A DNA stretch of 64,000 nucleotides. Source: Candidatus Omnitrophota bacterium (GTDB lineage: Bacteria > Omnitrophota > Gorgyraeia > JABMRN01 > RBG-13-46-9). Location of the stretch: NCBI GenBank assembly GCA_013203315.1, contig JABMQJ010000012.1, positions 6,402 through 70,401 on the forward strand, read 5' to 3'. Every line of letters starts with the position of its first letter. Positions within the stretch are counted from its first letter, which is position 1. A model generated the notes under the pieces. The model searched no databases. It was given only the letters and a program-made list of their open reading frames with translations, and was not told the DNA's origin. A program made the position numbers and the translations under genes. Shown here one piece after another: positions 2,478-44,328 of the stretch.

Positions 2478-3641
2478 ATGAAAAATAGGCCAGTCAGGTC
2501 CGCTAAAAGAAAAGCCGTCAAGAAATATACGCCAAGAAAAGACGAGCTTAAAAATTTAGCGGATTTCACTTCCAAAAACCCGAGGCCGTCTTTGTGCATA
2601 GGGAAAGGCGGGACTCTTCTTTACGCGAATGCCGCCAGTCTTCCTATTATTTCCGATTGGGGTAAAAAAATCGGCGATATGGTTTCTCGTGAATGGGGCG
2701 AGCTCATAAAAGAAGTTCTCGTCTCCGGCATTAGAGAAAATGTTGAGGTAGAGTGCAGTGGCCGCACTTATTCCTTCGTGATGGTGCCTGTGAAAAAAGC
2801 TTCTTACGTCAACATGTACGGGAGCGATGTCACGGAACGGAAAAGAGCGATGGAGAGGCTAACGGCCGCGTATGCCCAGCTTCAGGAAGCCCAGTCCCAG
2901 CTTGTCCGAGCGGAGAAAATGAACGTTATCGGTACGCTTGCCAGCGGTATCGCGCATGAGGTAAAAAATCCACTGGCTACTATATCCCAGGGCCTCGAGT
3001 ACCTTTCAAAAAATATTAATTCAAAAGATGAAAACGTGAATTCCATATTAAATTACATGGAAGACGCAGTCAAGAAGGCCGATGGCACGATAAGAGGGCT
3101 TTTGGATTTTAGTAGGGCCACGGCATTGGATATAAAATCGGAAAATTTAAATTCCGTGATTGAAGAGTCCCTGTCTCTTATAAAAATGCAGTCCGAAAAG
3201 AGTAAAACTACCGTTGTACAGGACCTTGACAAAAACATTCCGCAGATAGAAATAGACAAAAGTCGAATGCAGCAGGTGTTCGTGAACCTTTTTCTGAATT
3301 CCATTCAGGCAATGCCTGACGGAGGAGAGCTAAAGGTAAAGACCTACTTGAGGAAGTTGGTTAAGCGTAGCGTGATAGGCGTTGCGTCCCCGGGCGTGGA
3401 AAGCGCTATTGAAATCGAAGAAAAATCCATAATCGCAGAAATCGTCGATACGGGTAAAGGAATTCCCAAAGGCATCGCCGATAAAATCTTTGAACCCTTT
3501 TTTACTACAAGGCAGGGTAAGGGAGGCACAGGCCTAGGGCTTTCAATCGTAAGGAATATATTAGAGATGCATGAAGCGGGCATTGAAATAAAAAATAAAG
3601 AAGGCGGCGGGGTAAGAACAACTGTAATTTTCAAATTATAA
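2478..3641 (+). CDS. Cytoplasmic sensor histidine kinase (PAS-like N-terminus, HisKA, HATPase_c)
   Basis: H-box HEVKNPLATI, N/G boxes (NLFLNSIQAMPDGG, GTGLGLSIV). No TM segments. Confidence 0.85.
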   Translation: MKNRPVRSAKRKAVKKYTPRKDELKNLADFTSKNPRPSLCIGKGGTLLYANAASLPIISDWGKKIGDMVSREWGELIKEVLVSGIRENVEVECSGRTYSFVMVPVKKASYVNMYGSDVTERKRAMERLTAAYAQLQEAQSQLVRAEKMNVIGTLASGIAHEVKNPLATISQGLEYLSKNINSKDENVNSILNYMEDAVKKADGTIRGLLDFSRATALDIKSENLNSVIEESLSLIKMQSEKSKTTVVQDLDKNIPQIEIDKSRMQQVFVNLFLNSIQAMPDGGELKVKTYLRKLVKRSVIGVASPGVESAIEIEEKSIIAEIVDTGKGIPKGIADKIFEPFFTTRQGKGGTGLGLSIVRNILEMHEAGIEIKNKEGGGVRTTVIFKL

Positions 3642-3656
3642 AAGAGGAGGCGGATT

Positions 3657-4040
3657 ATGGCAAAGACAAAAATACTTATAGTTGACGATGAGGAAAATTT
3701 TGCACATATAGTAAAAATAAATCTTGAGCAGACGGGTAGCTTCGAGGTCGCGGTAGTGCCAGAGGCATCCGAGGCATGCAAGGCTGCCACGGTTCTTAAG
3801 CCGGACCTGATACTCTTGGATATAGTAATGCCTGACAAGGACGGCTTCGAAGTTCTAAAAGCGCTCAAGTCGAACGATAAAACCATGGCCATACCCGTAA
3901 TAATGCTGACAGCGGTAGGGGACGATAGCGCGAAGATTAAAGCAGCCGAGCAATTTAGCGAAGGTTACATCATAAAGCCGGTTAGCACCGAGGTTCTCCG
4001 GACAAAAATAGAAAGAGTGCTGGAGAGGCGCCCGAGTTAA
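3657..4040 (+). CDS. Single-domain response regulator (CheY-like receiver)
   Basis: ILIVDDE ... [14 protein letters not shown] ... conserved T/K positions. 127 aa with no output domain. Confidence 0.9.
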   Translation: [127 protein letters not shown]

Positions 4041-4067: not shown

Positions 4068-5471
4068 ATGAATATTCTTTTTGCTTCATCTGAGGTGGCG
4101 CCGTTTGCTAAGACCGGGGGATTGGCTGACGTATCCGCAAGCCTGCCGGCGGCCCTTGGCGAAATCGGGTGCGAAACAAAGGTCATCCTTCCTTTTTATA
4201 AAAGTGTCAAAAATATGGGCCTCGCCGGCCTCGTACCTTTTGCCATAAATGAATTCAATTTTTTTAAATATACAGAGCTCGGTATTGAGTACATTTTTGT
4301 CATTAATGACCGGTACTATGACAGGGAAAATCTATACGGGGAACCGCACGGCGATTACCCGGACAACGAGGCGCGTTTCTCATATTTTAGCAAAGCCATT
4401 GTAGCATTCGCCGCGCACACAGACCGAAAAACGGATATTATCCACTGTAACGATTGGCAGACGGGCCTGGTTCCCGTTTATTTAAAACTGCAAAAAAAAG
4501 AAATAAAAACGCTTTTTACCATACACAATATCGGTTATCAGGGTTTATTTAAAAAGGACCTGTTGGAAAGCCTTGGAATACCCAGGCAATTCTACAACAT
4601 AAACGGCATCGAATACTACGGGAAGATATCCTTTTTAAAAGCAGGAATCGTGTATTCCTCGGCTATAAGTACCGTCAGCAAGGGTTACGCAAGAGAAATA
4701 CTTACCCCGGCATTTGGTTGCGGTATGGACGGAATCCTCGGCACGCGCTCCTCCGAGCTTTACGGCATAGTTAACGGCGTTGACTATAACCTCTGGGACC
4801 CCGCGCGGGATAAATTCATAAAAGAGAACTATGGCCCGGAAAATGTTGATAAAAAAATAGAATGCAAGAAAGATCTGATAAAAGCAGTAGGGTTACCCGC
4901 CGAGACTATAGGCAGGCCGCTTATCGGCGTGATATCGAGGCTTGCGCACCAGAAGGGCATAGACCTTTTGGCCGGTGCAGCAAAAGAAATAATTGACCTG
5001 GGCGCAAGTATCATCATCCTCGGCACCGGGGACAAGAAGTACAACGCCATATGCTCGGATATTGCAAAGAAACACCCGAAATATATATCGAGCCAGATAA
5101 CTTTTAATAATGCCCTTGCCCACAAAGTCGAAGCAGGTAGCGATATGTTTGCGATGCCGTCACGATACGAGCCGTGCGGATTAAACCAGCTTTATAGCAT
5201 GAGATACGGCACGCTGCCCGTGGCAAGGGCAACGGGCGGATTAGATGATACAATAATTGATTTATACGAGGATAAAGACAGCGGAAACGGAATAAAGTTT
5301 CCGGATGCTACAAAAGACGGCCTTGTAAATGCCCTCCGCCGCGCCGTAGAACTTTATAAAGATAAAGCCTTGTGGCAGAGGACGCAGAAGAGAATAATGA
5401 ATCTGGATTTTTCCTGGAAAACATCCGCCTTGCACTACAAAGAACTCTACCAAAGCCTGCTTAATACATGA
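4068..5471 (+). CDS. glgA: Glycogen/starch synthase, ADP-glucose type (GT5)
   Basis: N-terminal EVAPFAKTGGLADV signature, 467 aa. Confidence 0.92.
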   Translation: MNILFASSEVAPFAKTGGLADVSASLPAALGEIGCETKVILPFYKSVKNMGLAGLVPFAINEFNFFKYTELGIEYIFVINDRYYDRENLYGEPHGDYPDNEARFSYFSKAIVAFAAHTDRKTDIIHCNDWQTGLVPVYLKLQKKEIKTLFTIHNIGYQGLFKKDLLESLGIPRQFYNINGIEYYGKISFLKAGIVYSSAISTVSKGYAREILTPAFGCGMDGILGTRSSELYGIVNGVDYNLWDPARDKFIKENYGPENVDKKIECKKDLIKAVGLPAETIGRPLIGVISRLAHQKGIDLLAGAAKEIIDLGASIIILGTGDKKYNAICSDIAKKHPKYISSQITFNNALAHKVEAGSDMFAMPSRYEPCGLNQLYSMRYGTLPVARATGGLDDTIIDLYEDKDSGNGIKFPDATKDGLVNALRRAVELYKDKALWQRTQKRIMNLDFSWKTSALHYKELYQSLLNT

Positions 5472-5589: not shown

Positions 5590-6768
5590 ATGAAAAAAAC
5601 GATACGCGACATTGATATAAAAGGAAAAAGAGTTCTAATGCGCGTGGATTTCAACGTGCCCCTGGACGAAAAACAGAATATTACAGACGATACACGAATC
5701 AAAAGCGTGCTCCCCACAATAAAGTATGCCCAAAACGCCCCCTCAAAGCTTATATTAATGAGCCATCTCGGAAGGCCAAAGGGGAGCGTAAATCCCCAGA
5801 TGAGTCTGGGGCCATGCGGAGAGAGACTTTCAAAGCTTTTGGGTAAAGACGTAAAGATGCTAAAGGACTGTGTTGGCTCTTCGGTCGAAGAAGAAGTGAG
5901 CAAAATGAAAGACGGAGACGTTGTTCTCCTGGAGAACCTGCGTTTTCATAAAGAAGAAACAAAAAATGACCCGCAATTTGCCGAATCCCTTGCCAAATTA
6001 GGCGATGTATTTATTAATGACGCTTTTGGCACTTGCCACAGGGCGCACGCTTCAACCGAAGGGATTACTAAATATTTACCGAGCGCTATGGGATTTTTGG
6101 TGGAAAAAGAAATAGAATACTTCGATAAAGTTCTCAATAATCCCGATAAGCCGGTTGCCCTTATCCTGGGGGGTGCTAAGGTTTCAGACAAAATCGCTGT
6201 TATAGAGAATATGCTTAAGGATATAGATTTTCTTTTGATTGGCGGAGCAATGGCATACACCTTTCTAAAATCACGCCTTAAGGGAGTAGGAAGTTCCAGG
6301 GTGGAGGAAGATAAAATTGAAACCGCATCGGAAATTTTCCAGAAAGCCAGGGACAATAACGTAAGCATATTTTTACCGGAAGACCATGTTATTGCCAAGG
6401 CCATAACACCTACCGCGCGAACCAGGGTCGTAAGGGAACATATTCCTGACGGCTGGATAGGCCTTGACATAGGCCCGAGAACGATCAAAAAGTTCAAAAA
6501 CGCCCTTAAAGGCGCAAAGACCATACTCTGGAACGGCCCGGTGGGCTATTTTGAAATGAAACCTTTTAAGAGGGGCACAACCGATATCGCAAAATTCATA
6601 TCCCGGCTTGATGCCACAACCGTAATAGGCGGCGGCGACACGGCTGCGGCGATAAACGCGCTGGGCCTCGCCAAGAAGATGAGCCACATCTCAACCGGCG
6701 GCGGTGCATCCTTGGAGTATTTGGAAGGGAAAGAACTGCCGGGCATAAAAGCTTTGCAGGATAAATAA
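5590..6768 (+). CDS. pgk: Phosphoglycerate kinase
   Basis: 392 aa. RVDFNVP N-terminus, GGGDTAAA and ISTGGGASLE motifs. Confidence 0.95.
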   Translation: MKKTIRDIDIKGKRVLMRVDFNVPLDEKQNITDDTRIKSVLPTIKYAQNAPSKLILMSHLGRPKGSVNPQMSLGPCGERLSKLLGKDVKMLKDCVGSSVEEEVSKMKDGDVVLLENLRFHKEETKNDPQFAESLAKLGDVFINDAFGTCHRAHASTEGITKYLPSAMGFLVEKEIEYFDKVLNNPDKPVALILGGAKVSDKIAVIENMLKDIDFLLIGGAMAYTFLKSRLKGVGSSRVEEDKIETASEIFQKARDNNVSIFLPEDHVIAKAITPTARTRVVREHIPDGWIGLDIGPRTIKKFKNALKGAKTILWNGPVGYFEMKPFKRGTTDIAKFISRLDATTVIGGGDTAAAINALGLAKKMSHISTGGGASLEYLEGKELPGIKALQDK

Positions 6769-7589: not shown

Positions 7590-7979
7590 ATGGCTTACGG
7601 TTTAGCTATAGGTGTTCATGTAATTGCGTGTCTGATTTTAATTGTAGTAATACTTCTGCAGGCAGGTCGCGGCGGGGGATTGAGTGAGGCCTTCGGCGGC
7701 GGCGAATCAAGCCAGACTATTTTTGGCACGAAGATATCCGTTTTTTTAACAAAGGCCACGGTTGTTGCGGCATGCCTTTTTCTGATTACATCTCTGCTCT
7801 TAGGGATAATGACATCCAGGAGGGGAAGGAGCTTAGTCGAAATGGAAAGGCGAAGGGCGGTGGCTCTTCCCGGTACGGTTCCCATCCCGAAGAATTTAAC
7901 AGAACAGTCTAAAGAAGTCGAAGTTACCGACAAAGAGGATCTCCCTCTTGCGAAACCCGACAAGAAGCCTACAGAGTAA
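7590..7979 (+). CDS. secG: Preprotein translocase subunit SecG
   Basis: ATG at 7590 preceded by a GGAG SD. LILIVVILLQAGRGGGLSEAFGG core typical of SecG. Sits in the conserved pgk-tpiA-secG position. The ORF track's upstream start at 7563 was rejected. Confidence 0.75.
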   Translation: MAYGLAIGVHVIACLILIVVILLQAGRGGGLSEAFGGGESSQTIFGTKISVFLTKATVVAACLFLITSLLLGIMTSRRGRSLVEMERRRAVALPGTVPIPKNLTEQSKEVEVTDKEDLPLAKPDKKPTE

Positions 7980-9630
7980 TATACAAAAAATACCGCTATT
8001 TTTTATAATAGCGGTATTTTTTTTACTATACCTAACCACTCCGAGCGCGAACGGGGACAGGTCTTCTCCTGACACTATACTGCCTGATGAAAGACCTGTC
8101 CCCGCCGAACCTGTCTACGGAGACGCATTCGTAGTCGGCCAGATAGGCGATGCGCGCACGTTAGTTCCCATATTAGCCTCAGACAGCCCATCCTCTTATA
8201 TCGTGGCCCTTGTATTCAATGGACTTCTAAAATATGACAAAAACGTAGAGCTCATAGGCGACTTGGCCGAATCCTGGACGATAGAAGACGACGGCTTATC
8301 AATAGTATTTTTCTTGAGAAGAAATGTTAAGTGGCATGATGGGCACCCCTTTACAGCAAAAGACGTTGAATTTACGTACAAATCAATAATAGACCCGAAC
8401 GTACCCACCCCGTATAGCGGTGATTTTAAAATGATTAAAACACTCGCTGTCATTGACGATTATACCGTAAAAATAACTTATAAAGAACCATTTGCCCCGG
8501 GCTTGACAAGTTGGGGCATGCCGATTATGCCCAAGCACATCCTGGAAGGCCAAGATCTTCTTACCACGGATTTCGCGCGCAACCCCATAGGAACCGGACC
8601 TTATAAATTTAAAAGATGGAAAACCGGCGAAAGGATTGATCTTGTATCCAATCACGAATATTTCAGGCATCGCCCCTACATAGACAGGTATATATATAGG
8701 GTAATACCGGATACGGCGACAATGTTCCTGGAATTGAAAACAGGCGGCATAGATGAAATGGGGCTTACGCCGCTACAGTTTACAAGGCAGACAGACACGG
8801 CGTTTTTTAAAAAGCGTTTTCAAAAATTTAAATACCCCTCTTTCGGCTACACCTTCCTGGCGTATAATCTTAAAGACGAAAAATTCATGGATAAAAATGT
8901 CCGACAGGCGCTTAATTATGCCGTAGATAAAAATGAAATAATAGACGGCGTTCTTTTGGGGCAGGGAAGAGTTTGTACGGGGCAGTTTGTTCCGGAATCC
9001 TGGGCCTTTAATAAGGATGTAAAGCCATGGCCCTATGATCCCAAAAAAGCCAAAGTAATGTTGAAAGAGTCAGGTTGGCAGGATACCGATCGTGACGGCT
9101 GGCTTGATAAAAACGGTAAGATTTTTGAATTTACAATACTTACAAATCAAGGTAATGAAACCCGGCGCCAGACGGCTGAAATCATGCAGAGGCGCCTTAG
9201 GGATATCGGCGTTAAGGTAAATATAAGGATTCTGGAATGGTCCGTTTTCTTGAACGAATTCGTGAATAAAAAAAGATTCGAAGCAATCATTCTAGGGTGG
9301 GGTCTCGGCAGGGAGCCGGACTGCTTTGACATATTTCATTCTTCAAAAACAAAAGAAGGCGAATTTAATTTTATAAGTTATTCAAATTCCGAAATAGACC
9401 GTCTTCTCATAGAAGGAAGGCGCACATTCGATAGGGAAAAGAGAAAAGAAATTTATAATAGAATTCACGAAATTCTCTACACCGATCAGCCGTACATGTT
9501 TTTATATATACCGGATTCACTGGTCGCGGTAGATAGCCGTTTTCAGGGGATAGAAGTCTCACCGATCGGCATCGGTTACAATTTCATCGATTGGTGGGTA
9601 CCTAAGGCTAGGCAGCGATACAGGTATTAA
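7948..9630 (+). CDS. Oligopeptide/dipeptide ABC transporter periplasmic substrate-binding protein (SBP family 5, OppA/DppA-like)
   Basis: 560 aa. Family-5 SBP features throughout. The only in-frame start upstream of the hydrophobic signal segment ([15 protein letters not shown]) is TTG at 7948, which overlaps the secG 3' end. Start is uncertain. Confidence 0.8.
7985..8024 (+). terminator. Rho-independent terminator, possibly bidirectional (A-tract, 10-bp perfect stem, U-tract)
   Basis: aaaaaa-taccgctatt-ttttat-aatagcggta-tttttttt. It lies just after secG, inside the predicted 5' coding region of the oppA-like gene. Confidence 0.7.
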
Positions 9631-9631
9631 C

Positions 9632-10606
9632 ATGCTGAAATACATATTAAAGCGTTTACTGCACATGATCCCTATCTTGCTGGGGATCACACTTATCTCA
9701 TTTGCCGTAATTCATCTGGCGCCGGGTAAACCGACGGATTTGATGCTTCAATTAAACCCTAAAGTCGATTTTGAGGCGCGCGAAAAATTAAATAGAATTT
9801 ATGGCTTTGACAAGCCTCTCTACGTTCAGTATCTAAACTGGATGAAGAAACTCTCGCGATTAGATTTCGGAAAAAGTTTTATCGACAATAGGCCCGTTAT
9901 CGAGAAGATCAGAGAGAGGCTCCCTATAACGATATTTATAAACGTCCTGGCCATGACGACAATTTTCCTGCTTTCGATACCCATCGGAATAAAAAGTGCC
10001 GTTAGGCGGGGTTCTGTTTTTGACAAAACAACAACGGTTTTTGTTTTCTTGGGTTTCGCGGCGCCGAGTTTTTGGCTGGGGTTACTTCTCATGTCCTTTT
10101 TCGGGGTAAGGCTCGGGATCCTACCGGTTTCGGGGATAGCCTCGCTTGATTTTGAAAATTTTTCAACCCTTGGAAAAATTGCGGATGTTTCCAAGCATCT
10201 CATTCTACCCGTTGCCGTAGCGAGTATCGGGGGATTGGCCGGGGTGTCTCGATACATGCGCCAGAGCATGTTAAATGTTATTTCGCAGGATTACATAAAA
10301 ACAGCCCGGGCGAAAGGGCTTCCCGAAAAAACAGTAATCTACAAGCACGCTTTAAGAAACGCGTTACTGCCCATAATTACAATTCTTGGACTCTCAATTC
10401 CGGGACTCATATCAGGAAGCGTGATTTTGGAGACAATTTTTAGTATACCGGGAATGGGACGCCTCATGGTCGAATCTGTTTTTACGCGGGATTACAACGT
10501 TATAATGGCGGGCCTTGTAATAAGCGCGCTTCTTACTTTGATCGGAAATCTAATCGCGGATATCGCCTACGTGCACGCGGATCCACGCATAAGGTATAAA
10601 CGATGA
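9632..10606 (+). CDS. ABC peptide transporter permease (OppB/DppB-like)
   Basis: Six predicted TM helices. EAA-like loop [21 protein letters not shown]. 324 aa. Confidence 0.85.
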
Positions 10607-11420: not shown

Positions 11421-12977
11421 ATGCTTTTAAAAATAAAAAACCTAAAAATACAATTTACGCATGACGGAAAAGTCATGAAAGCCGTGGACGGTATTGACTT
11501 TGAAATAAAAGAAAACGAGGTCGTGGGGCTTGTAGGGGAATCCGGGAGCGGAAAAACCGTTACCGCACTTTCGATAATGAAACTGCTTCCGACAAAGGAT
11601 TGCACGACATCCGGCGAAATTATTTTTGAAGGAAAAGATTTAGCGATCTCAAATGAAAAAGAAATCCGGAGCGTAAGGGGCTCTAAAATAACGATGGTTT
11701 TCCAGGAACCGTTCACCTCGCTAAATCCTGTCATGAGAGCGGGGGAGCAAATAAGAGAGGCAATTTTTGCGCACAGGAAAATATCAAAAAAAGAAGCTGA
11801 AGAAAAAAGTATAAGCCTTTTAGAAAAAGTAAAGATAAGCGATCCTCACAGAATTTACGATTCTTACCCGCACCTTCTTTCCGGTGGGGAAAGGCAAAGG
11901 GTAATGATCGCGATGGCAATTGCAATGAGACCTAAGCTTTTGATTGCCGATGAGCCTACGACCGCGCTTGACGTAACTATACAATCCGAAATTTTGGAGC
12001 TTCTACTAGGGTTGAAAAAAGATCTAAATATGTCGGTTCTTTTTATCACTCATGATTTTGGCATCATAAATAAAGTTGCCGACAGGGTTCTTGTCTTAAA
12101 CGGCGGGAAAATCATAGAGAGAGGAGAGAAAAAGGATATTCTTTCCGCGCCCAAAGAAGATTACACGAAAAAACTTCTTCTCGCCGTTCCGAAGATTACC
12201 TTTGCACCCGGGAAAAAGGAAATGCCCGGTGAAAAAAGCGCGATAACGGCTGAAAAACTGAATAAGACTTTCATAATCGAAAATGGTATTTTTAAAAAAG
12301 ATGAAAATAGGGTGTGTGCGGTCAGAGATGTGAATTTGGAAATAAAAAAGGGAAGAACACTTGGCGTAGTCGGTGAGTCCGGTTCCGGCAAGACAACCCT
12401 GGGAAAACTTTTAATAGGTTTATTAAAACCCGATTCCGGCAGTATACGATATAGCCGGAAGACTGCCTTCGCATCCGGTATCCAGATTGTGTTCCAGGAC
12501 CCCTACAGTTCTTTGGATCCGCGGATGAGGATGCAGGACATCGTTCTTGAGGGTCTTACGATTAGTGGGGTGAATAAAGAGAAAAAGGAATCGGTTCTAC
12601 GGGACGTGCTTTTTAAAGTGCACTTAAATTATAAAAATCGGATGAAATACCCGCACCAGTTTTCAGGCGGACAAAGACAAAGAATCGCGATTGCGCGGGC
12701 GCTGGCAGTAAATCCGGAGATTCTGATCCTTGACGAACCCGTTTCAAGCCTGGACGTAATAATACAAAAAGAGATCTTAAATCTTTTAAGAGAACTCCAG
12801 AAGGAGTTTTGCCTTACTTACGTATTCATATCGCACGACTTACGTGTTGTCGAATATATGGCTGATAACGTTGCTGTGATGCAGAAAGGCGAGATTGTGG
12901 AGCTTGCGTCTCGCGACGAAATCTACCGCTCACCCAAACACCCTTACACAAAACGCCTCCTCTCAAGCGTGCTGTAA
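11421..12977 (+). CDS. Fused tandem ABC ATPase (OppD-OppF in one polypeptide)
   Basis: Two Walker A motifs (GESGSGKT x2). Two ABC signatures (LSGGERQRV, FSGGQRQRI). Two Walker B motifs (LLIADEPT, ILILDEPVS). Confidence 0.85.
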   Translation: MLLKIKNLKIQFTHDGKVMKAVDGIDFEIKENEVVGLVGESGSGKTVTALSIMKLLPTKDCTTSGEIIFEGKDLAISNEKEIRSVRGSKITMVFQEPFTSLNPVMRAGEQIREAIFAHRKISKKEAEEKSISLLEKVKISDPHRIYDSYPHLLSGGERQRVMIAMAIAMRPKLLIADEPTTALDVTIQSEILELLLGLKKDLNMSVLFITHDFGIINKVADRVLVLNGGKIIERGEKKDILSAPKEDYTKKLLLAVPKITFAPGKKEMPGEKSAITAEKLNKTFIIENGIFKKDENRVCAVRDVNLEIKKGRTLGVVGESGSGKTTLGKLLIGLLKPDSGSIRYSRKTAFASGIQIVFQDPYSSLDPRMRMQDIVLEGLTISGVNKEKKESVLRDVLFKVHLNYKNRMKYPHQFSGGQRQRIAIARALAVNPEILILDEPVSSLDVIIQKEILNLLRELQKEFCLTYVFISHDLRVVEYMADNVAVMQKGEIVELASRDEIYRSPKHPYTKRLLSSVL

Positions 12978-12978
12978 G

Positions 12979-13110
12979 TGTACCGTTTGCAATTTTCCGT
13001 CCAACCTGTCCCCAATTCTGAACGTAAAGGTGTCCCTTCTTTGCATTACTAGAGAGACATCTTTAATTTCAGAATTGGGGACAGGTTGCATTGAAAATTG
13101 CAAACGGTAC
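12979..13110. repeat. Large imperfect inverted repeat (43-44 nt arms, ~45 nt spacer that itself folds into a 9-bp hairpin)
   Basis: Left arm gtaccgtttgcaattttccgtccaacctgtccccaattctgaa (12979-13021). Right arm ttcagaattggggacaggttgcattgaaaattgcaaacggtac (13067-13110). Only a 5-nt internal mismatch. No U-tract follows. Confidence 0.8.
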
Positions 13111-13117
13111 AGAATCC

Positions 13118-13146
13118 TTGCAAATCAGGTGCTTTTATTGTATAAT
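13118..13146 (+). promoter_or_regulatory. Sigma70-type promoter TTGCAA-17-TATAAT upstream of otsA
   Basis: ttgcaa at 13118-13123, 17-nt spacer, tataat at 13141-13146. ~35 nt upstream of the otsA ATG with an AAGGAA SD. Confidence 0.55.
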
Positions 13147-13180
13147 ATTATACTCAAATAATAATAAATAAAGGAATGTC

Positions 13181-14650
13181 ATGCCCTGGACAAAAACGCA
13201 ACTCAACGAATCAATTAAGAAAATTATAGGCGATAGGCTGCTTATTATCGCATCCAACAGGGAACCCTATATACACACCTATAAAGAGGGTAAGGTTGAG
13301 TATATTCGGCCGATCGGCGGCGCTGTTACGGCATTGGATCCTGTTATGAGGGTTACCAAGGGAACGTGGGTAGCCTACGGAAGCGGAAATGCCGACAAAG
13401 ACGTTGTAGATAAGAAGAACGAAGTAAAAGTCCCTCCCGAAAACCCCAAATATAAACTGAGAAGAATATGGCTCTCTAAGGACGAGGAAAACGGTTACTA
13501 TTATGGGTATTCCAACAAAGCAATGTGGCCGCTTTGCCACATGGCTTATACAAGGCCCGCTTTCGACGATGTAGACTGGGCTTACTATAAAATCGTAAAC
13601 CAGAAATTCGCCGACACGATTCTTGATATCGTCAAGGACCAAAAGGCCTTCGTGTGGATACAGGATTATCATCTTTTGCTTTTGAGTAAACTTTTGAAGG
13701 AAAAAAACAAGAACCTGATTACCGCTCACTTTCTTCATATACCATGGCCCAATCCCGAAGCATTCCGCATATGCCCGCAAAAAAACGAGATACTTGAAGG
13801 GCTTCTGTCAAATAACCTTTTGGGATTTCACATAAGGTACCACTGCAGTAATTTTATGGAGACCGTTAAGCTGGAAATGGAGGCAAGGATTGACACCGAA
13901 AGGACATCCGTTGTTTACGGGGGGCACGAGACGCTTGTGAGGGCATTTCCTATAAGCGTGGATTTTGCGGAAATATCCGAGCAGGCCGAATCAAAAGAAG
14001 TTAAAAGCGCGATGAAAAAATTAAGGCACGAATTTTCGATAGAAAATGACGTTTTTATCATGGTCGGCTTAGACAGAATAGATTACACAAAAGGCATAGT
14101 TGAGAAGATTAGGGCAGTGGACCGTTTCTTCGAAAAATTTCCCGAATATAAAGGCAAGGTCACGTTCATTCAAAAGGGTGGCTTGAGCAGAATGCATATA
14201 CCCGAATACAAAGAGCTGAACGATACCCTAAACAGGTTGGTAGAGGAAGTAAACTGGAAGCATTCGACCGAAAAGTGGTACCCGATTTTACTTATCAGGC
14301 GCCACATGTCGAGAACAGGGATCATTGCTTTATATAAGATGGCAAACGCGTGCCTGGTGAGTCCCTTGCACGACGGAATGAATCTGGTCTGCAAAGAGTT
14401 TATAGCGACGAAAAACGATTTAAACGGCGTTTTAATCTTGAGCCAGTTTACCGGCGCAGCCAGGGAACTGGACGATGCGATATTCGTAAATCCTTACGAC
14501 AGGGAGAATTTCGCCATAATGCTGAAAGAAGCCGTAGAACTTCCCGATTCAAAAAAGAAAAAAAGGATGAAACGCTTAAGAAGCGTCGTAAAGGAAAATA
14601 ATATTTACAAATGGGCGGGAAAATTCTTAGAAGAATTAAAAAAGATTTAG
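13181..14650 (+). CDS. otsA: Trehalose-6-phosphate synthase (GT20)
   Basis: 489 aa. YGYSNKAMWPLCH, FLHIPWP and LVGLDRIDYTKG motifs typical of OtsA. Confidence 0.9.
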   Translation: MPWTKTQLNESIKKIIGDRLLIIASNREPYIHTYKEGKVEYIRPIGGAVTALDPVMRVTKGTWVAYGSGNADKDVVDKKNEVKVPPENPKYKLRRIWLSKDEENGYYYGYSNKAMWPLCHMAYTRPAFDDVDWAYYKIVNQKFADTILDIVKDQKAFVWIQDYHLLLLSKLLKEKNKNLITAHFLHIPWPNPEAFRICPQKNEILEGLLSNNLLGFHIRYHCSNFMETVKLEMEARIDTERTSVVYGGHETLVRAFPISVDFAEISEQAESKEVKSAMKKLRHEFSIENDVFIMVGLDRIDYTKGIVEKIRAVDRFFEKFPEYKGKVTFIQKGGLSRMHIPEYKELNDTLNRLVEEVNWKHSTEKWYPILLIRRHMSRTGIIALYKMANACLVSPLHDGMNLVCKEFIATKNDLNGVLILSQFTGAARELDDAIFVNPYDRENFAIMLKEAVELPDSKKKKRMKRLRSVVKENNIYKWAGKFLEELKKI

Positions 14651-15405
14651 CGGCACGAATTAAGGGCGCGAAAAGAGTAATATTTTTCCTGGATTACGAC
14701 GGCACGTTAGTCCCCATCAAGAAGAGACCATCCCTCGCCAAAATTCATAAAAATACAAAAAACCTCCTTAAGAAACTGGCAAATACTCCTCCTGCAAAAA
14801 TTTTCATCATAAGCGGCCGCTCATTAAAAGACGTAAAAAAGTTGGTCGGCATAAAATCCCTCTACTATATAGGCAACCACGGCATGGAACTCGAGGGCCC
14901 ACGCTTAAAATACGTAAACAAATCAGCAAATGCTTTAAAAACTTTTATGCAAAAAAGTTGCCAAATGCTGAAAAAGAGGGTACACTTAAGAGGTGTTGTT
15001 TTAGAAGACAAGACTTACACCTTGAGTTTGCATTATAGACTGGTTGATCCGGGTAAGGTGAAGGCCCTAAAAAAAGTTTTTTTTGAAACATTAAAGCGCG
15101 CTAAAAGTGAAAAAAAGATAAAGGTTACCGAGGGCAAAAAAGTCTTAGAAGTCCGGCCGAATATAAAGTGGGATAAAGGAAAAATATTAAATCAGGTTTT
15201 AAGAGGCATGGGGCAAAAAGGCACCTTGGCTATTTGTATAGGCGATGATAAGACGGACGAAGATGCCTTTAGGGCGCTCGGGAAAAAGGGAGTAAGCATA
15301 GTCGTTTCGAGAAAGTCCAGAAAAACACGAGCGCAGTACAGGCTAAAATCTCCGAAGGAAGTTTTGAATTTATTAAAATGGTGCAGGCATGAACTGGTGG
15401 ACTAA
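14611..15405 (+). CDS. otsB: Trehalose-6-phosphate phosphatase (HAD family)
   Basis: FLDYDGTL HAD motif I, GDDKTDEDAF motif. 264 aa, immediately after otsA with a 40-nt overlap. Confidence 0.85.
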   Translation: MGGKILRRIKKDLAARIKGAKRVIFFLDYDGTLVPIKKRPSLAKIHKNTKNLLKKLANTPPAKIFIISGRSLKDVKKLVGIKSLYYIGNHGMELEGPRLKYVNKSANALKTFMQKSCQMLKKRVHLRGVVLEDKTYTLSLHYRLVDPGKVKALKKVFFETLKRAKSEKKIKVTEGKKVLEVRPNIKWDKGKILNQVLRGMGQKGTLAICIGDDKTDEDAFRALGKKGVSIVVSRKSRKTRAQYRLKSPKEVLNLLKWCRHELVD

Positions 15406-16066
15406 AAAATCATCGAATCCTTTTCAATTTTACACGAGCGTTAAGCTAAGAGAGGTAACGGGGAGAAAAGCCCGTACATTGCGGGAGCTTGTGGAAATTA
15501 TAAAAGAGGTTTCGGGCTCGGTCATATATTATCATACACACGTTTTTCTGCAGAGGCATCAGAACATTTCACCGGAACCGCCGAACGATTTCGCGTTTTG
15601 GGTGTCATCTACTTTGGGGGAGAACAAATTAAGCGAGGAATTGGCAAGCATAGATATATGCGAGTTTAGCACTATTCGTGAGCTTAGAGAAAGAATAATA
15701 AAAACAATAGAAAATCATTTATTCGAAACAAAAGAGCCCCAGAGATATGCGTTGCAGGGAAAAGAATTCGAGTTTATAAAAGCTCACAGCATTGTCATGC
15801 CTGCCGGTTTTACGGCGCATAACCTTAAAGAATTCGCGACAATCCTGGAGAAGGTTACCATTCATTCGATATATTTTCATATATTTGAGGCAAGATTAAG
15901 GCTGGAGAAAGCCGTCAATGACTTTGCATTCTGGATAGGTACTTCGGTAGGCTCTCCGGAGCTTGCAAAGATTATCGAATCGCTCGATCCTTATACGTTT
16001 ACCGGAGAGGGTTTGAGGCGGGAATTGATAAAGATCATAAACGATTGGTGTACCACGCATAAATAA
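15389..16066 (+). CDS. Hypothetical protein with an internal two-fold repeat (NDFAFW ... SL/ELA ... motif twice), embedded in the trehalose cluster
   Basis: 225 aa, no TM or signal. The halves ...YYHTHVFLQRH...NDFAFWVSSTLGENKLSEEL... and ...IYFHIFEARLR...NDFAFWIGTSVGSPELAKII... are clearly homologous. Overlaps the otsB stop by 17 nt. Confidence 0.6.
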   Translation: MNWWTKKSSNPFQFYTSVKLREVTGRKARTLRELVEIIKEVSGSVIYYHTHVFLQRHQNISPEPPNDFAFWVSSTLGENKLSEELASIDICEFSTIRELRERIIKTIENHLFETKEPQRYALQGKEFEFIKAHSIVMPAGFTAHNLKEFATILEKVTIHSIYFHIFEARLRLEKAVNDFAFWIGTSVGSPELAKIIESLDPYTFTGEGLRRELIKIINDWCTTHK

Positions 16067-17342: not shown

Positions 17343-18623
17343 ATGGGATATACTATAACTGAAAAAATATTACGGGCGCACATTACCAAGAAATCCATAA
17401 ACCCCGGCGATTTCATTAACGCCAAGGTGGATTTTTGCCTGGGAAACGATATAACCGCCCCGATAGCGATTAATGAATTCCGCAGGACAGGCGCAAAAAA
17501 AGTATTCGACAAGACAAGGATCGCCCTCATACCCGACCACTTCACACCTGCAAAGGACCTAAGAAGCGCCAACCAGGCGAAGATGCTCTGTGAATTCGCA
17601 AAAGAGCACAAAATCGAGCATTATTACGAAGTCGGCAGAATGGGCGTCGAGCATGCGCTTTTACCTGAATTAGGATTGGTCCTGCCGGGCAATCTTGTTG
17701 TAGGCGCTGATTCACATACGTGTACTTACGGGGCGCTGGGATGTTTTTCAACGGGTGTGGGTTCAACAGATTTGGCGGCCGCGTTTATAAAAGGAGAATG
17801 CTGGTTTAAGGTTCCCGAGACGATTAAGTTCGTTTATCACGGAAAGCTAAAAAAGTGGGTAAGCGGTAAGGACCTAATACTCTATACGATCGGCCAGATT
17901 GGTGTAGACGGGGCGCTTAATAAGGCGATGGAGTTTACCGGGGAAGCGATAAAAGCGCTTCCAATGGATGACAGGTTCAGCATTTGCAATATGGCCATAG
18001 AGGCAGGCGGAAAAAACGGTATTATCGAACCCGACAAAGCTACGGTAAGTTACGTAAATGCCGCTATAAGAAAAAATAAACCGAAAAGGAAAGGTTTTAA
18101 ATTATATAAAAGCGACAAAGACGCAAACTACGCGGATGTAAAAGAATTTGATGCCTCAAAAATCGAGCCGCAGGTAAGTTTTCCGCATCTTCCGAGTAAC
18201 GCGAAGCCCGTAACCAAGGCAAAGAATATAAATATTGATCAGGTGGTTATCGGCTCGTGCACAAACGGCAGAATAAGTGATTTAGAAATAGCCGCCAAGA
18301 TTCTAAAGGGAAGAAAAGCAAAGCAAGGCGTGCGGCTTATAATCATACCGGCAACGCAGGCGATTTATCTCGAGGCCGTAAAACTGGGATTTGCAAAGAC
18401 CTTTATTGATGCAGGAGGAGTTTTTTCAACGCCGAGCTGCGGACCGTGTTTGGGAGGGCATCTCGGGATACTCGCAGAAGGCGAACGCGCGATCGCAACG
18501 ACGAATCGGAATTTCGTAGGAAGGATGGGGCACCCTAAATCTGAGGTTTATCTTGCCTCGCCGGCAGTAGCAGCAGCAAGCGCTATCAGGGGACGCATAG
18601 CGCACCCGAAAGAGGTCGTGTAA
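17343..18623 (+). CDS. leuC: 3-isopropylmalate dehydratase large subunit (short archaeal-type LeuC/aconitase family)
   Basis: 426 aa. [11 protein letters not shown]-terminus, aconitase-family Cys ligands (GSCTNGR, CGPCLG). Confidence 0.85.
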
Positions 18624-23061: not shown

Positions 23062-24072
23062 ATGGAAAGGGTAAGATACCAGATAGACCCGCATAATAGG
23101 CTCGTTATCCGGAAAGCTGCCAGAAAAACACCCCTTCCGTATTTTAGAAAAGTCCTGACAGGCCGTTTTAAAATCGATAACGATAATGAGCTCACCTACC
23201 ACGTAAAAACTCCCGTCCCGCATGGCAAAAATATTCCTCATCAGGTAAAGCTAAGAGGGCAATGGTCAGTAACAGATGATCATAATCTCCGTCTTACTTT
23301 TGACAAATGGGGAAGGGAGACTTTCGGCGATCGGCTTACCATAAAAGGCGATATCGTAGACACGAGTAAAAATTCATTCCTCTTTGCAATCACTACAAAA
23401 ACAAAAGAAAATACCCGCTCAACATATATACTTAGACTTCAAGGGGTATGGCAGGCCGATAAAAATAACCGTCTTACATTTAGGATAACAAAGGAGGATG
23501 GTAGGCATGATATTCTGGTATTAGACGGTATCTGGGAAATAAATAAAAACTATCAGATTATTTATAAATACGAAAAGGCGCATCTTGTAAGAAAACGAAA
23601 AAAACTTCACACCCTTATTTTTAAGGGCTATTGGGATATCTCCGGAAAAAAGCGTATATCATATATAATTGACGCAAAATCCGGTTCCGTGTTTAACTTT
23701 AAAACCGGCCTTGACATATTCAGGGCCGGTTATGTAAAATATGAACTAGGTGTAAAGCTCTCATACAGCCCTAAACCGGTTAAGCGCAAGATTACTCTTT
23801 CCGGTGCCTGGAAGATTAAGAGAAATCTAGGGCTTGTATTCGAAATGGCATACAAAAATCAAAAACTTCACGCCATAATTTTCGGCGCCGAAGCAAGATT
23901 GACGGCAAGAGATATGGTATCTTTCAGGCTTAGAAATGAATTAAATAAAGACATGGGCGTAACCTTAAAGCTGTCGCATAAAATATTAAAAGGGGACGGC
24001 GAGGCTTTTTTAAAATTACTTAGGTCGAAAAAAGAATGCGCCGTATTAGCAGGTTCGGGGTGGAAATGGTAA
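23062..24072 (+). CDS. Hypothetical repeat protein, ~9 tandem ~35-aa beta-hairpin-like repeats centred on G-x-W / N-x-L-x-F
   Basis: Repeats include LRGQWSVTDDHNLRLTF, LQGVWQADKNNRLTFRI, LDGIWEINKNYQIIYKY, FKGYWDISGKKRISYII and LSGAWKIKRNLGLVFEM. No signal peptide. 7-nt overlap with the downstream protease gene. Confidence 0.6.
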   Translation: MERVRYQIDPHNRLVIRKAARKTPLPYFRKVLTGRFKIDNDNELTYHVKTPVPHGKNIPHQVKLRGQWSVTDDHNLRLTFDKWGRETFGDRLTIKGDIVDTSKNSFLFAITTKTKENTRSTYILRLQGVWQADKNNRLTFRITKEDGRHDILVLDGIWEINKNYQIIYKYEKAHLVRKRKKLHTLIFKGYWDISGKKRISYIIDAKSGSVFNFKTGLDIFRAGYVKYELGVKLSYSPKPVKRKITLSGAWKIKRNLGLVFEMAYKNQKLHAIIFGAEARLTARDMVSFRLRNELNKDMGVTLKLSHKILKGDGEAFLKLLRSKKECAVLAGSGWKW

Positions 24073-24806
24073 CTAAGCTTGCCGCAGCGGTAATCGTCGT
24101 TATGCTAACCTACGCGCCAAGTATAATTGCCGATACAATTATACTTAAAAATGGCGAAGAAATAGTAGGAAACGTGGTTAGTGAATCCGGCGAAGGTGTA
24201 GTAGTAAGCAAACAGGGCGGAAGCTTTGTATATTCAATTTCAAAAAATAGAATAAAAAACATAAGAAAATCAACCCCGGGGGAAGAAGCCTGGCAGGAGA
24301 AAAAAGAGGGGCGTTTCTACAAAACGGATAAGAAAAATATTTCCGAACAAAAAAGCAAGTGGAAAGAATACCGTTTATCGGAATACAAAAAAGAAGTGAT
24401 TGCAGCAGATCGTGCCCAGGGCAGAATGCGCGTTCATTTTACGAATAATAAATTTGGCGTTGTGGATGTGGTTCTGAATGATAAAATAAGGGCCTCGCTT
24501 TTCGTTGACACGGGTGCTAGTTTTGTATCGATTTCCGAGAAAACAGCCGGAGACCTAAAGATTGACTTAGGGTCGCTTCCGAAGATCAAGCTTATACTCG
24601 CAAACGGAAGCGAGGTAGAGGGGTATTCTACTACGCTCGATTCAGTCGAAGTCGGCAATGCCCGCATCGAAAATGTTAAAATCGCTATACACAAGATGTC
24701 TGACTCCGGCAAGGTAGACGGCCTCCTCGGCATGTCCTTCCTGAAGCACTTCCACGTAAAACTTGATTCACAAGAGAACTGTCTCATCCTCGAAAAATAC
24801 CAGTAA
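24066..24806 (+). CDS. Secreted retropepsin-like aspartic protease (clan AA, bacterial DTGA type) with an N-terminal SH3-like region
   Basis: Signal peptide MVTKLAAAVIVVMLTYAPSIIA. Catalytic LFVDTGASFVSIS and flap-like GLLGMSFL. Start taken at ATG 24066 instead of the ORF-track start 24036. Confidence 0.7.
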   Translation: MVTKLAAAVIVVMLTYAPSIIADTIILKNGEEIVGNVVSESGEGVVVSKQGGSFVYSISKNRIKNIRKSTPGEEAWQEKKEGRFYKTDKKNISEQKSKWKEYRLSEYKKEVIAADRAQGRMRVHFTNNKFGVVDVVLNDKIRASLFVDTGASFVSISEKTAGDLKIDLGSLPKIKLILANGSEVEGYSTTLDSVEVGNARIENVKIAIHKMSDSGKVDGLLGMSFLKHFHVKLDSQENCLILEKYQ

Positions 24807-43101: not shown

Positions 43102-43220
43102 TGCTAAGTTTGGCTGGATTTTTGTTATAACCGAAATTGTGCTTCTTTATTTATTATTTCTGTATATACACCGGGTAGTAGAGAAGAAGCTCGGCAAGAA
43201 ATAAGCCCGAAACTGTTGGA

Positions 43221-43264
43221 CCGTTTCCATATCGCAATGTCTATATGGAAACGGTATATTTTTG
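43221..43264 (+). terminator. Candidate intrinsic terminator or operator: perfect 12-bp inverted repeat followed by a T-rich run
   Basis: ccgtttccatat-cgcaatgtct-atatggaaacgg then tatattttt. Downstream of the SNF transporter gene, upstream of the rplM promoter. Confidence 0.4.
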
Positions 43265-44205: not shown

Positions 44206-44261
44206 CCTATCCTGTCAGATTCTCGACGAGAAAAATGTTGACAGGGTAGGTTTTTTGTTTT
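44206..44261 (+). terminator. Rho-independent terminator after rpsI (13-bp stem with 2 G.U, 21-nt loop, U-tract)
   Basis: cctatcctgtcag ... ttgacagggtagg then ttttttgtttt. Confidence 0.6.
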
Positions 44262-44266
44262 ATACT
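44238..44266 (+). promoter_or_regulatory. Sigma70-type promoter TTGACA-17-TATACT for argC, overlapping the rpsI terminator's descending arm
   Basis: ttgaca at 44238-44243, 17-nt spacer (gggtaggttttttgttt), tatact at 44261-44266. A ~60-nt AT-rich leader with ATATGTA repeats follows. Confidence 0.5.
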
Positions 44267-44328
44267 GACGAGATATGTAGTATTATGATTATATGATATG
44301 TACTGTGGAATAGTTGAAAGGGTCCAAA

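Follow-up and report, generated by a model that had tools for sequence, protein, structure and literature searches.

A hairpin between opp and otsA in Candidatus Omnitrophota as a probable copy of a family of short palindromic mobile repeats

A palindrome between the opp and otsA genes

We analysed a 64,000-nucleotide stretch of a Candidatus Omnitrophota genome (assembly GCA_013203315.1, contig JABMQJ010000012.1, positions 6,402 to 70,401), hereafter the window, and within it a long palindromic element that lies between an opp gene and otsA. Upstream of the element, the gene for a fused Opp-type ABC (ATP-binding cassette) ATPase (11421-12977; two ABC_tran domains and oligo_HPY in Pfam) ends in a TAA stop codon at 12975-12977 on the plus strand. 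Downstream, on the same strand, otsA (13181-14650; trehalose-6-phosphate synthase, Pfam Glyco_transf_20, E = 3e-130) leads the series otsA-otsB-DUF5752-treT. Its sigma-70-type promoter (13118-13146, plus strand; 10/12 in a consensus scan) consists of the -35 hexamer TTGCAA at 13118, a 17-nt spacer and the -10 hexamer TATAAT. The complete element, as delimited by its inverted repeat, its fold and a covariance model (R1, described below), comprises 133 nt (12979-13111); it starts 1 nt beyond the ATPase stop codon, and the triplet GAA follows it immediately (13112-13114, plus strand). The original prediction, made from the sequence alone, had described a near-perfect inverted repeat of 132 nt just upstream of the otsA -35 box. 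The repeat is real and extends one base further at its 3' end (13111 rather than 13110), which leaves 6 nt before the hexamer.

A repeat search of the window resolved two arms of 59 nt each (12979-13037 and 13053-13111; 88% complementarity) around a gap of 15 nt, by far the longest inverted repeat in the window. In its fine structure, a 19-bp outer stem is followed by a 5-nt bubble (CGTCC opposite GCATT) and a 20-bp inner stem, and the central 45 nt show additional pairing, as had been proposed for bubbled arms around a spacer with pairing of its own. The arms that recur in other copies are 35 nt long. The left family arm (12979-13013, plus strand; nhmmer arm-profile E = 5e-11, aligned with 15 other arms) is made up of the 19-nt outer stem TGTACCGTTTGCAATTTTC, the variable box CGTCC (12998-13002) and the 11-nt inner stem AACCTGTCCCC. 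The right family arm (13077-13111, minus strand; E = 7e-12) reads, as reverse complement, TGTACCGTTTGCAATTTTC-AATGC-AACCTGTCCCC. Nested between them at the apex is a 63-nt inner palindrome (13014-13076), AATTC-TGAACGTAAAGGTGTC...GACATCTTTAATTTCA-GAATT, which is missing from the basic copies of 75-79 nt.

As plus-strand RNA, the element folds with -84.3 kcal/mol, compared with -30.4 +/- 3.6 kcal/mol for shuffled sequences (z = -15.0; none of 200 shuffles equals it). The corresponding values are -83.6 kcal/mol (z = -12.5) for minus-strand RNA and -50.1 kcal/mol (z = -14.8) under DNA parameters. An open reading frame (ORF) of 88 amino acids (aa; 12895-13161) runs over the element and overlaps the 3' end of the ATPase gene in another frame. 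It had been dismissed as palindrome translation, and a protein search agrees: the element-spanning part of this ORF and the other open-frame translations, concatenated and compared with 5.8 billion proteins, gave two matches only, both of them in-frame copies of the same element in another genome, GCA_030605095.1. Few family copies thus appear to be called as protein.

An intrinsic terminator would combine a G+C-rich hairpin with a T-run, and no T-run follows the element on either strand, in agreement with the earlier view that it is not a canonical terminator. Unlike the element, the control terminator after rpsI (window 44244-44294), AACCTATCCTGTCAG...TTGACAGGGTAGG, is followed by T6; it is conserved in the fetched loci L025, L026 and L027. 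Rfam returned no match to the element at gathering threshold. Below it, only generic long-hairpin models appeared, the best being a plant microRNA hairpin model with 51 bits, where 90 are required, and nothing supports the dedicated large riboregulator RNA that had also been suggested. Readings of the arm sequence as a sigma-54 promoter or as outward -35 boxes were rejected by inspection because spacing or motifs do not fit. The window hairpin is not a canonical terminator and probably not a dedicated regulator.

We compared the opp-otsA locus in four relatives (L017, L018, L020 and L022), whose OtsA proteins are 80-84% identical. Gene order is kept in all four, one of which has two extra small genes, and the otsA promoter is kept in each, as CTTGCAAA-N17-TATA(C/A)T at an equal distance from otsA. 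None of the four has the element in its opp-otsA spacer. This spacer measures 61-64 nt in L017, L018 and L022, where the promoter lies 6-9 nt past the opp stop codon, compared with 203 nt in the window. Given the empty site in the relatives and the kept promoter, we read the window element as a clean insertion of about 133 nt that is specific to its lineage; it entered after the stop codon and before the otsA promoter, which it left intact. The fourth relative, L020, carries two inserted small genes between opp and otsA (9331-9880; 36 aa and a 140-aa N_methyl pilin-like protein), so that insertion has recurred at this junction. The window matches a metagenome contig of 74 kb from JGI, and five other contigs of this population carry identical copies of the element; homologues of OtsA bear the name Candidatus Omnitrophota. 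Contig SRR28106066_203664 (L006, 1-98) begins inside the element, at window position 13014 on the boundary between arm and inner palindrome; this contig start may be an assembly break due to the palindrome.

Dispersed copies and their anatomy

What we conclude about copy number is drawn from about 320 kb of sampled sequence rather than from whole genomes. A metagenome scan with the 19-mer of the window arm returned 10 loci, nine of which were set aside as chance matches (only 19-20 nt in common, unrelated contexts). The one meaningful locus, L009, has 31 of 31 nt identical to the right arm directly 3' of the pheA stop codon, within a compound copy between pheA and hisC (773-908). An internal 20-mer of the window arm had no match in 185,579 species genomes, and viral contigs, plasmids and phages gave no match to the element. 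The arm variant used in these exact-word scans of the collections was that of the window, which is atypical. The consensus of the relatives, TGAACCGTTTGCGATTTTC, would be the better probe; a second subfamily has the arm sequence TGAAGCGTCTGC.

A degenerate arm pattern led to a palindrome of 79 nt that has the family arms and lies between queA and tgt in an Omnitrophota metagenome-assembled genome (MAG) from the Black Sea (L023). Further copies came from an nhmmer profile that was built from the arms and run on the loci fetched from relatives. Four lie in L018, at 3634-3708 (between pgk and tpi), 6454-6528 (a perfect palindrome between the gene for the substrate-binding protein, SBP, and oppB), 8687-8762 (within the oppDF ORF) and 17918-18018 (a compound copy between icd and asd, L018d), and one in L020 at 6568-6645 (between oppB and oppC). 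The peptide search added a copy at the bioH-bioC junction of L024 (10672-10746). Overall, eight or more further sites, none of them orthologous to the window site, carry the arms; they are spread over four other genomes or contigs. L018 and L024 belong to one assembly, GCA_030605095.1, which holds five copies and two related mini-palindromes in 43 kb. In filled-versus-empty alignments, every copy is an insertion relative to genomes without it.

The covariance model R1 was built from seven copies, with the window copy left out. It recovers all seven of them at 88-101 bits, and the window element scores 82 bits. R1 found no other copy in the window, even with filters off, and no copy in 6.3 kb of extra source contig. 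The contig end, fetched up to its last 61 nt, contains no partial copy. Four further relatives, anchored on ArgH, contained no family copy by the arm profile or, subsequently, by R1. Elsewhere in the window, R1 weakly matches 43217-43258, only because this site is a hairpin: ACCGTTTCCATAT...ATATGGAAACGGT with a T-run stands there after an SNF-family transporter gene, and a TTGACA promoter-like site for rplM lies just downstream. The distribution of the family is patchy, dense in one genome and sparse or absent in others.

The original prediction had likened the hairpin to a transposable element of the miniature inverted-repeat class (MITE) or a repetitive extragenic palindromic (REP) type element, and the recurrence of the arms at non-orthologous sites, together with their absence from the orthologous spacer of four relatives, speaks for an element of this sort. 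The multiple copies it expected of a MITE exist in another genome, GCA_030605095.1, but the window and the ~70 kb of source contig contain one only. It had also named single-copy status and absence from close relatives as signs of an idiosyncratic hairpin; the four relatives do lack the element, yet its arms recur elsewhere. A one-off local palindrome, or an unusual opp terminator without relatives elsewhere, would suit a hairpin that is present once in the window, where neither arm segment recurs, and that directly follows a stop codon. We consider it very improbable in view of the same arms at the other sites and of the missing T-run, which the organism's own terminators possess.

Alignment of the copies defines a basic unit of 75-79 nt: TG(A/T)ACCGTTTGC(G/A)ATTTTC, a 5-nt box, AACCTGTCCCC, a loop of 5-9 nt and the reverse complement. 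The outermost 19 nt are the most conserved part of the family arms. The box has two main alleles, CGTTC and AATGC/AATTC, and the two arms bear different alleles in six of seven copies, which creates a conserved bubble and an internal polarity; both polarities are found relative to the host genes. Over seven copies, 98.6% of the stem cells outside the box are paired. Five of the 31 stem pairs are changed on both sides, compared with 1.7 +/- 1.0 in shuffles (2 of 500 reach five). An asymmetric C9 variant, confined to the left arm, is common to L020 and L018d, which are different loci in different genomes; whole units have therefore been copied, forming subfamilies. A TGTACC/A13 subfamily unites the window copy with L009.

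Three of the nine copies (the window copy, L018d and L009) are compound, each with a different palindrome at its apex. The 63-nt inner module of the window copy has no second copy in about 250 kb of sampled sequence. That of L018d is 86% identical to a free 46-nt mini-palindrome at L018 oppB|oppC. L009 contains an unrelated 68-nt perfect palindrome and then a degenerate right arm that now holds the hisC start codon; an initial description of L009 as a solo arm, analogous to a REP singlet, was revised when these two parts were found.

Junctions, flanks and reading frames

All copies sit in co-directionally transcribed gene arrays, and all intergenic copies, the window copy among them, begin 0-4 nt from the upstream stop codon. 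The element's first three bases, TGA, are themselves this stop codon in L023 and in the three intergenic L018 copies (L018a, L018b and L018d), and so they are in the mini-palindrome, related to the family, at L018 oppB|oppC. The donated TGA occupies the same codon position as the TAA or TAG of element-free genomes in three of the four possible comparisons; at oppB|oppC, the exception, it comes one codon earlier. Where the genes ancestrally overlapped (ATGA), the downstream gene gained a new start 8-15 nt past the element.

A palindrome that is imperfect, varies in length and directly follows a stop codon, and that has a conserved bubble inside it and a variable apex, is also reminiscent of an integron attC site behind a gene cassette. 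The R''/R' consensus of attC sites is RYYYAAC/GTTRRRY, with the R boxes outermost. The left box region, GTCCAAC, fits R'', but its partner is GTTGCAT rather than GTTRRRY, and the RYYYAAC-like motif is internal, with the 19-bp conserved stem outside it. Moreover, the neighbours are syntenic housekeeping genes instead of cassettes and the window has no integrase, so we give an attC site next to no credence.

No direct repeat of 2-4 bp, nor any target-site duplication of 2-10 bp, flanks any of the nine copies, including the perfect and presumably recent copy at L018 6454-6528. The triplet GAA stands directly 3' of five of the nine (background frequency 0.028; binomial P = 2e-6). Because it is seen with either internal polarity, has no TTC counterpart at the opposite end and was ancestrally present at the oppDF site, we read it, from a small sample, as a strand-specific target preference; on the same grounds, GAA as part of the element is disfavoured. 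A reading of GAA as a duplicated 3-bp target, whose left copy would be the GAA within TGAACC, was rejected since positions 1-4 are part of the element, as the TGTACC...GGTACA subfamily (window and L009) makes plain.

These flanks bear on whether the family consists of classical MITEs, that is, deletion derivatives of an insertion sequence (IS) whose terminal inverted repeats of 19-35 nt are bound by a DDE transposase that cuts at TG...CA ends. The terminal inverted repeats are long and well conserved (19-nt perfect outer ends, 35-nt arms), the interior is replaceable, as three different inner modules attest, and the termini are TG...CA. Such termini are typical of IS3, IS481, IS21, Tn7 and Mu ends. 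The inverted repeats satisfy the length asked of MITEs (at least 10-15 bp; PMC11602168), the copies measure 75-133 nt within a range of 50-800 bp and have no transposase of their own (the sole ORF across the window element being palindrome translation), and size and copy pattern match those of prokaryotic MITEs (PMC10969869, PMC11602168). Several dispersed copies per genome were found in GCA_030605095.1, with five in 43 kb, and one copy in ~70 kb of the source genome. Against a classical MITE, the 2-10-bp target-site duplication is lacking at all nine copies, no IS with matching ends was found in the window, the fetched loci, plasmids or phages, and the flank bias is one-sided, with GAA downstream only, which symmetric cut-and-paste does not predict. 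This identity is possible but doubtful.

Two copies are translated in frame, L018 8687-8762 in oppDF and L024 10672-10746 in a BioH-BioC ORF, with inserts of 25-26 residues. The former occupies a variable loop of the ABC ATPase, where it adds an inserted peptide segment. The latter belongs to a single 521-aa ORF in a biotin gene cluster (L024 10001-11566, P0122), in which a BioH-like alpha/beta hydrolase and a BioC-like methyltransferase are joined by a linker of 25 element-encoded residues, EPFAISISTCPRKGDRLNGKSQTVQ; here, to judge from the sequence, the element may have fused neighbouring genes. At L022 8639-8694, an unrelated palindrome, CCCCTCACCCT...AGGGTGAGGGG, lies in frame in the same variable loop of the Opp ATPase as the L018 copy, so this loop was struck independently by two palindrome families.

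Other palindrome families occupy further junctions. Near-identical double-hairpin elements, GACCCCATGCTTACGCATGGGG...CCACAGGCGTAAGCCTGTGG, were found in L026 at 4560-4626 (between a semialdehyde-dehydrogenase-family gene and argJ) and 7858-7924 (between argD and argF); since both end in GGAGGAACG just before the downstream ATG, this repeat seems to bring its own ribosome-binding site. Long palindromes of other families stand at junctions in L020 (14446-14575, 21207-21336 and 14173-14321), L018 (16276-16399), L022 (5631-5682 and 8268-8309), L025 (2283-2380 and 6546-6695), L027 (8750-8795) and L028 (8060-8135). The 130-nt elements L020 14446-14575 and 21207-21336 form one family. Junction palindromes thus look like a general feature of the genomes of these Omnitrophota relatives.

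The element might alternatively serve the host as an intercistronic RNA module kept by selection, such as a hairpin for processing or stability or an insulator of transcription, which here separates opp from otsA. Copies in co-directional gene arrays would be within mRNAs, the window hairpin is extremely stable, and the stems have been kept through double changes. In addition, no terminator separates opp from otsA in the relatives, which could make an insulator useful, and Correia and ERIC elements, with their effects through RNase III or RNase E, offer a precedent (PMC10969869). However, presence is patchy and lineage-specific, the junction being empty in close relatives and the regions of five relatives being without a copy, and copies inside ORFs are translated. 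Sense-strand stem mismatches are C.A in four of four cases and never G.U, which in this tiny sample runs contrary to selection on the sense RNA, and unrelated palindrome families stand at equivalent junctions in other genomes. We regard a selected RNA module as quite improbable.

A few further observations concern the window and its surroundings. A 19-nt inverted repeat (7982-8025; 95% complementary, very AT-rich) lies at the ORF start of the Opp substrate-binding protein. In one metagenome variant, L003 (8241-9797), the fused Opp ATPase is called as two ORFs, 247 aa and 251 aa long and 57 nt apart, a hint at a polymorphic frameshift or stop codon within the population. The DUF5752 gene between otsB and treT (15389-16066) keeps its position in all relatives and may belong, so far unrecognised, to the trehalose pathway cluster. 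At 24036-24806, a 256-aa ORF has retropepsin-like aspartic protease domains (Asp_protease_2, gag-asp_proteas), unusual for a bacterial housekeeping region.

Kind, mobility and meaning of the family

Taken together, the window hairpin is probably, though by no means certainly, one member of a family of short mobile repeats in Candidatus Omnitrophota, palindromic, non-coding and not described before. Its sequence record shows a mobile or formerly mobile repeat that is copied as a unit and enters gene junctions and, occasionally, reading frames. The family should be filed only under the general kind of small palindromic dispersed repeats (MITE/REPIN/RPE-like), because it falls short of the tests that define classical MITEs, REP/REPINs and Correia elements.

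REPINs are hairpin-forming inverted doublets of REP sequences moved by REP-associated tyrosine transposases (RAYTs), which are related to IS200/IS605 (PMC3116915). Like the REPINs of, for example, Pseudomonas fluorescens SBW25 (PMC3116915, PMC3337134), the Omnitrophota repeats are non-coding units of ~80-130 nt with two inverted arms and a spacer, form a long hairpin with internal bubbles, are copied whole, fall into subfamilies and decay to half-elements upon DNA insertion; the proposed IS200/IS605-like single-strand mechanism of REPINs also predicts no target duplication. They differ in having no sequence similarity to REPINs, no GTAG-type head and arms that are singly weak palindromes. They also differ in placement, since copies lie inside ORFs as well and are thus not strictly extragenic, and no RAYT gene came to light in the sampled loci; the source genome seems to have few copies.

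The ends of IS200/IS605 elements are two different subterminal hairpins, whereas the Omnitrophota element is one long palindrome with no TnpA gene nearby. The likeness to these elements lies in the lack of target duplication, in insertion on one strand beside a short sequence (here GAA in sense, TTC on the other strand) and in DNA hairpins (PMC3116915).

Rickettsia palindromic elements (RPEs) resemble the family as in-frame palindromes that add a peptide segment to proteins of a small, compact genome (PMC10969869). Phylum and sequence differ, the unit is 75-79 nt as against about 100-150 nt, and the Omnitrophota copies are mostly at junctions. We know of no description of stop-codon donation by RPEs.

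Correia/NEMIS elements of Neisseria and ERIC/IRU elements of enterobacteria are likewise imperfect palindromes of 70-160 nt that are transcribed from intergenic sites, form long RNA hairpins, vary in size through internal insertions or deletions and have known effects on mRNA processing and stability (PMC10969869, PMC2229807, PMC3184786, PMC2759123). A review describes RNase III cleavage of Correia-containing transcripts, effects of ERIC on transcripts, elements nesting in one another and in-frame RPE fusions (PMC10969869). However, the TA target duplication, 26-bp terminal inverted repeats, integration host factor (IHF) sites and promoters of Correia elements have no counterpart here: no TA duplication, IHF site or promoter was seen in the family and its sequence is unrelated to Correia and to ERIC; an RNase III or RNase E effect on it would be by analogy only. 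In pneumococcus, the unrelated small repeat families BOX, RUP and SPRITE coexist at junctions and insert into one another (PMC3049150, as cited in PMC10969869), for which the three compound copies and the other palindrome families of the relatives are the Omnitrophota counterpart. Unlike the present repeats, SPRITE mimics a terminator with its T-run and BOX is modular instead of being one palindrome, and the sequences are unrelated.

In the history we propose, a copy landed in the window lineage in the gap that separates the opp stop codon from the -35 box of otsA, with an unrelated 63-nt palindrome nested at its apex. Because the window contains no mobilising enzyme, copies would be made in trans by an enzyme encoded elsewhere. 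The absence of target duplications, the one-sided flank and the centrality of the hairpin point to a hairpin or single-strand-DNA mechanism like that of REPIN-RAYT or IS200/IS605, strand-specific and free of duplication. This is the route we prefer, although its probability falls slightly short of even. A DDE transposase acting on the TG...CA ends is also conceivable and distinctly less probable. Improbable, though worth stating, is a distinct hairpin transposon of compact genomes that would insert without duplication and strand-specifically 5' of GAA at gene junctions, have TGA at both termini, open other frames and an apex that serves as a landing pad for further palindromes, and possibly use a new Omnitrophota enzyme. 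If so, the TGA termini would let either orientation replace an upstream stop codon, and the open frames would allow read-through.

Several observations weigh against a mobile family moved in the way we prefer. One copy only was found in ~70 kb of the source genome, so that activity in that genome is unproven, and R1 found none in ~107 kb from the regions of five relatives. No transposase, integrase or RAYT-like gene was present among the window ORFs or the called genes of any fetched locus, and Y1_Tnp had no match in either set. The single-strand route in particular is challenged by the long, perfect inverted ends with TG...CA termini, which point to a DDE transposase, by the absence of a GTAG-type REP head from the family and by the weak folding of single arms (-0.4, -3.8 and -8.9 kcal/mol). 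GAA could, moreover, be a 3-nt extension of the element, or could reflect selection for purine-rich spacers before start codons. The effects on opp and otsA RNA considered next should be weighed on this side too, as they are argued from analogy.

At the window site, the element would have no dedicated function. Incidentally, opp transcripts that run past the stop codon would carry a very stable stem-loop (-84 kcal/mol) at their 3' end. If it behaves as REP, ERIC and Correia elements do (PMC10969869, PMC2229807), this stem-loop would block 3' exonucleases, protect the upstream mRNA and be an RNase III substrate. It would also reduce read-through into otsA and so uncouple the opp mRNA from otsA, which has its own promoter. 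We regard such an effect as incidental and not selected, because relatives manage without the element and copies also lie inside ORFs.

Omnitrophota are uncultured, and many are ultra-small with tightly packed genes. A literature search found no paper that links the phylum with small mobile palindromic repeats, and the largest census of prokaryotic MITEs left out MAGs (PMC11602168). Judging from the present family and the other palindrome families, Omnitrophota gene junctions are repeatedly invaded by hairpin elements that replace stop codons, rebuild downstream gene starts, lengthen enzymes by peptide segments and may join adjacent genes into one. In annotation, they account for odd small ORFs, apparent gene fusions and contig breaks. 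For the study of mobile DNA, the lack of a target duplication beside a one-sided GAA flank provides a testable handle on the mechanism.

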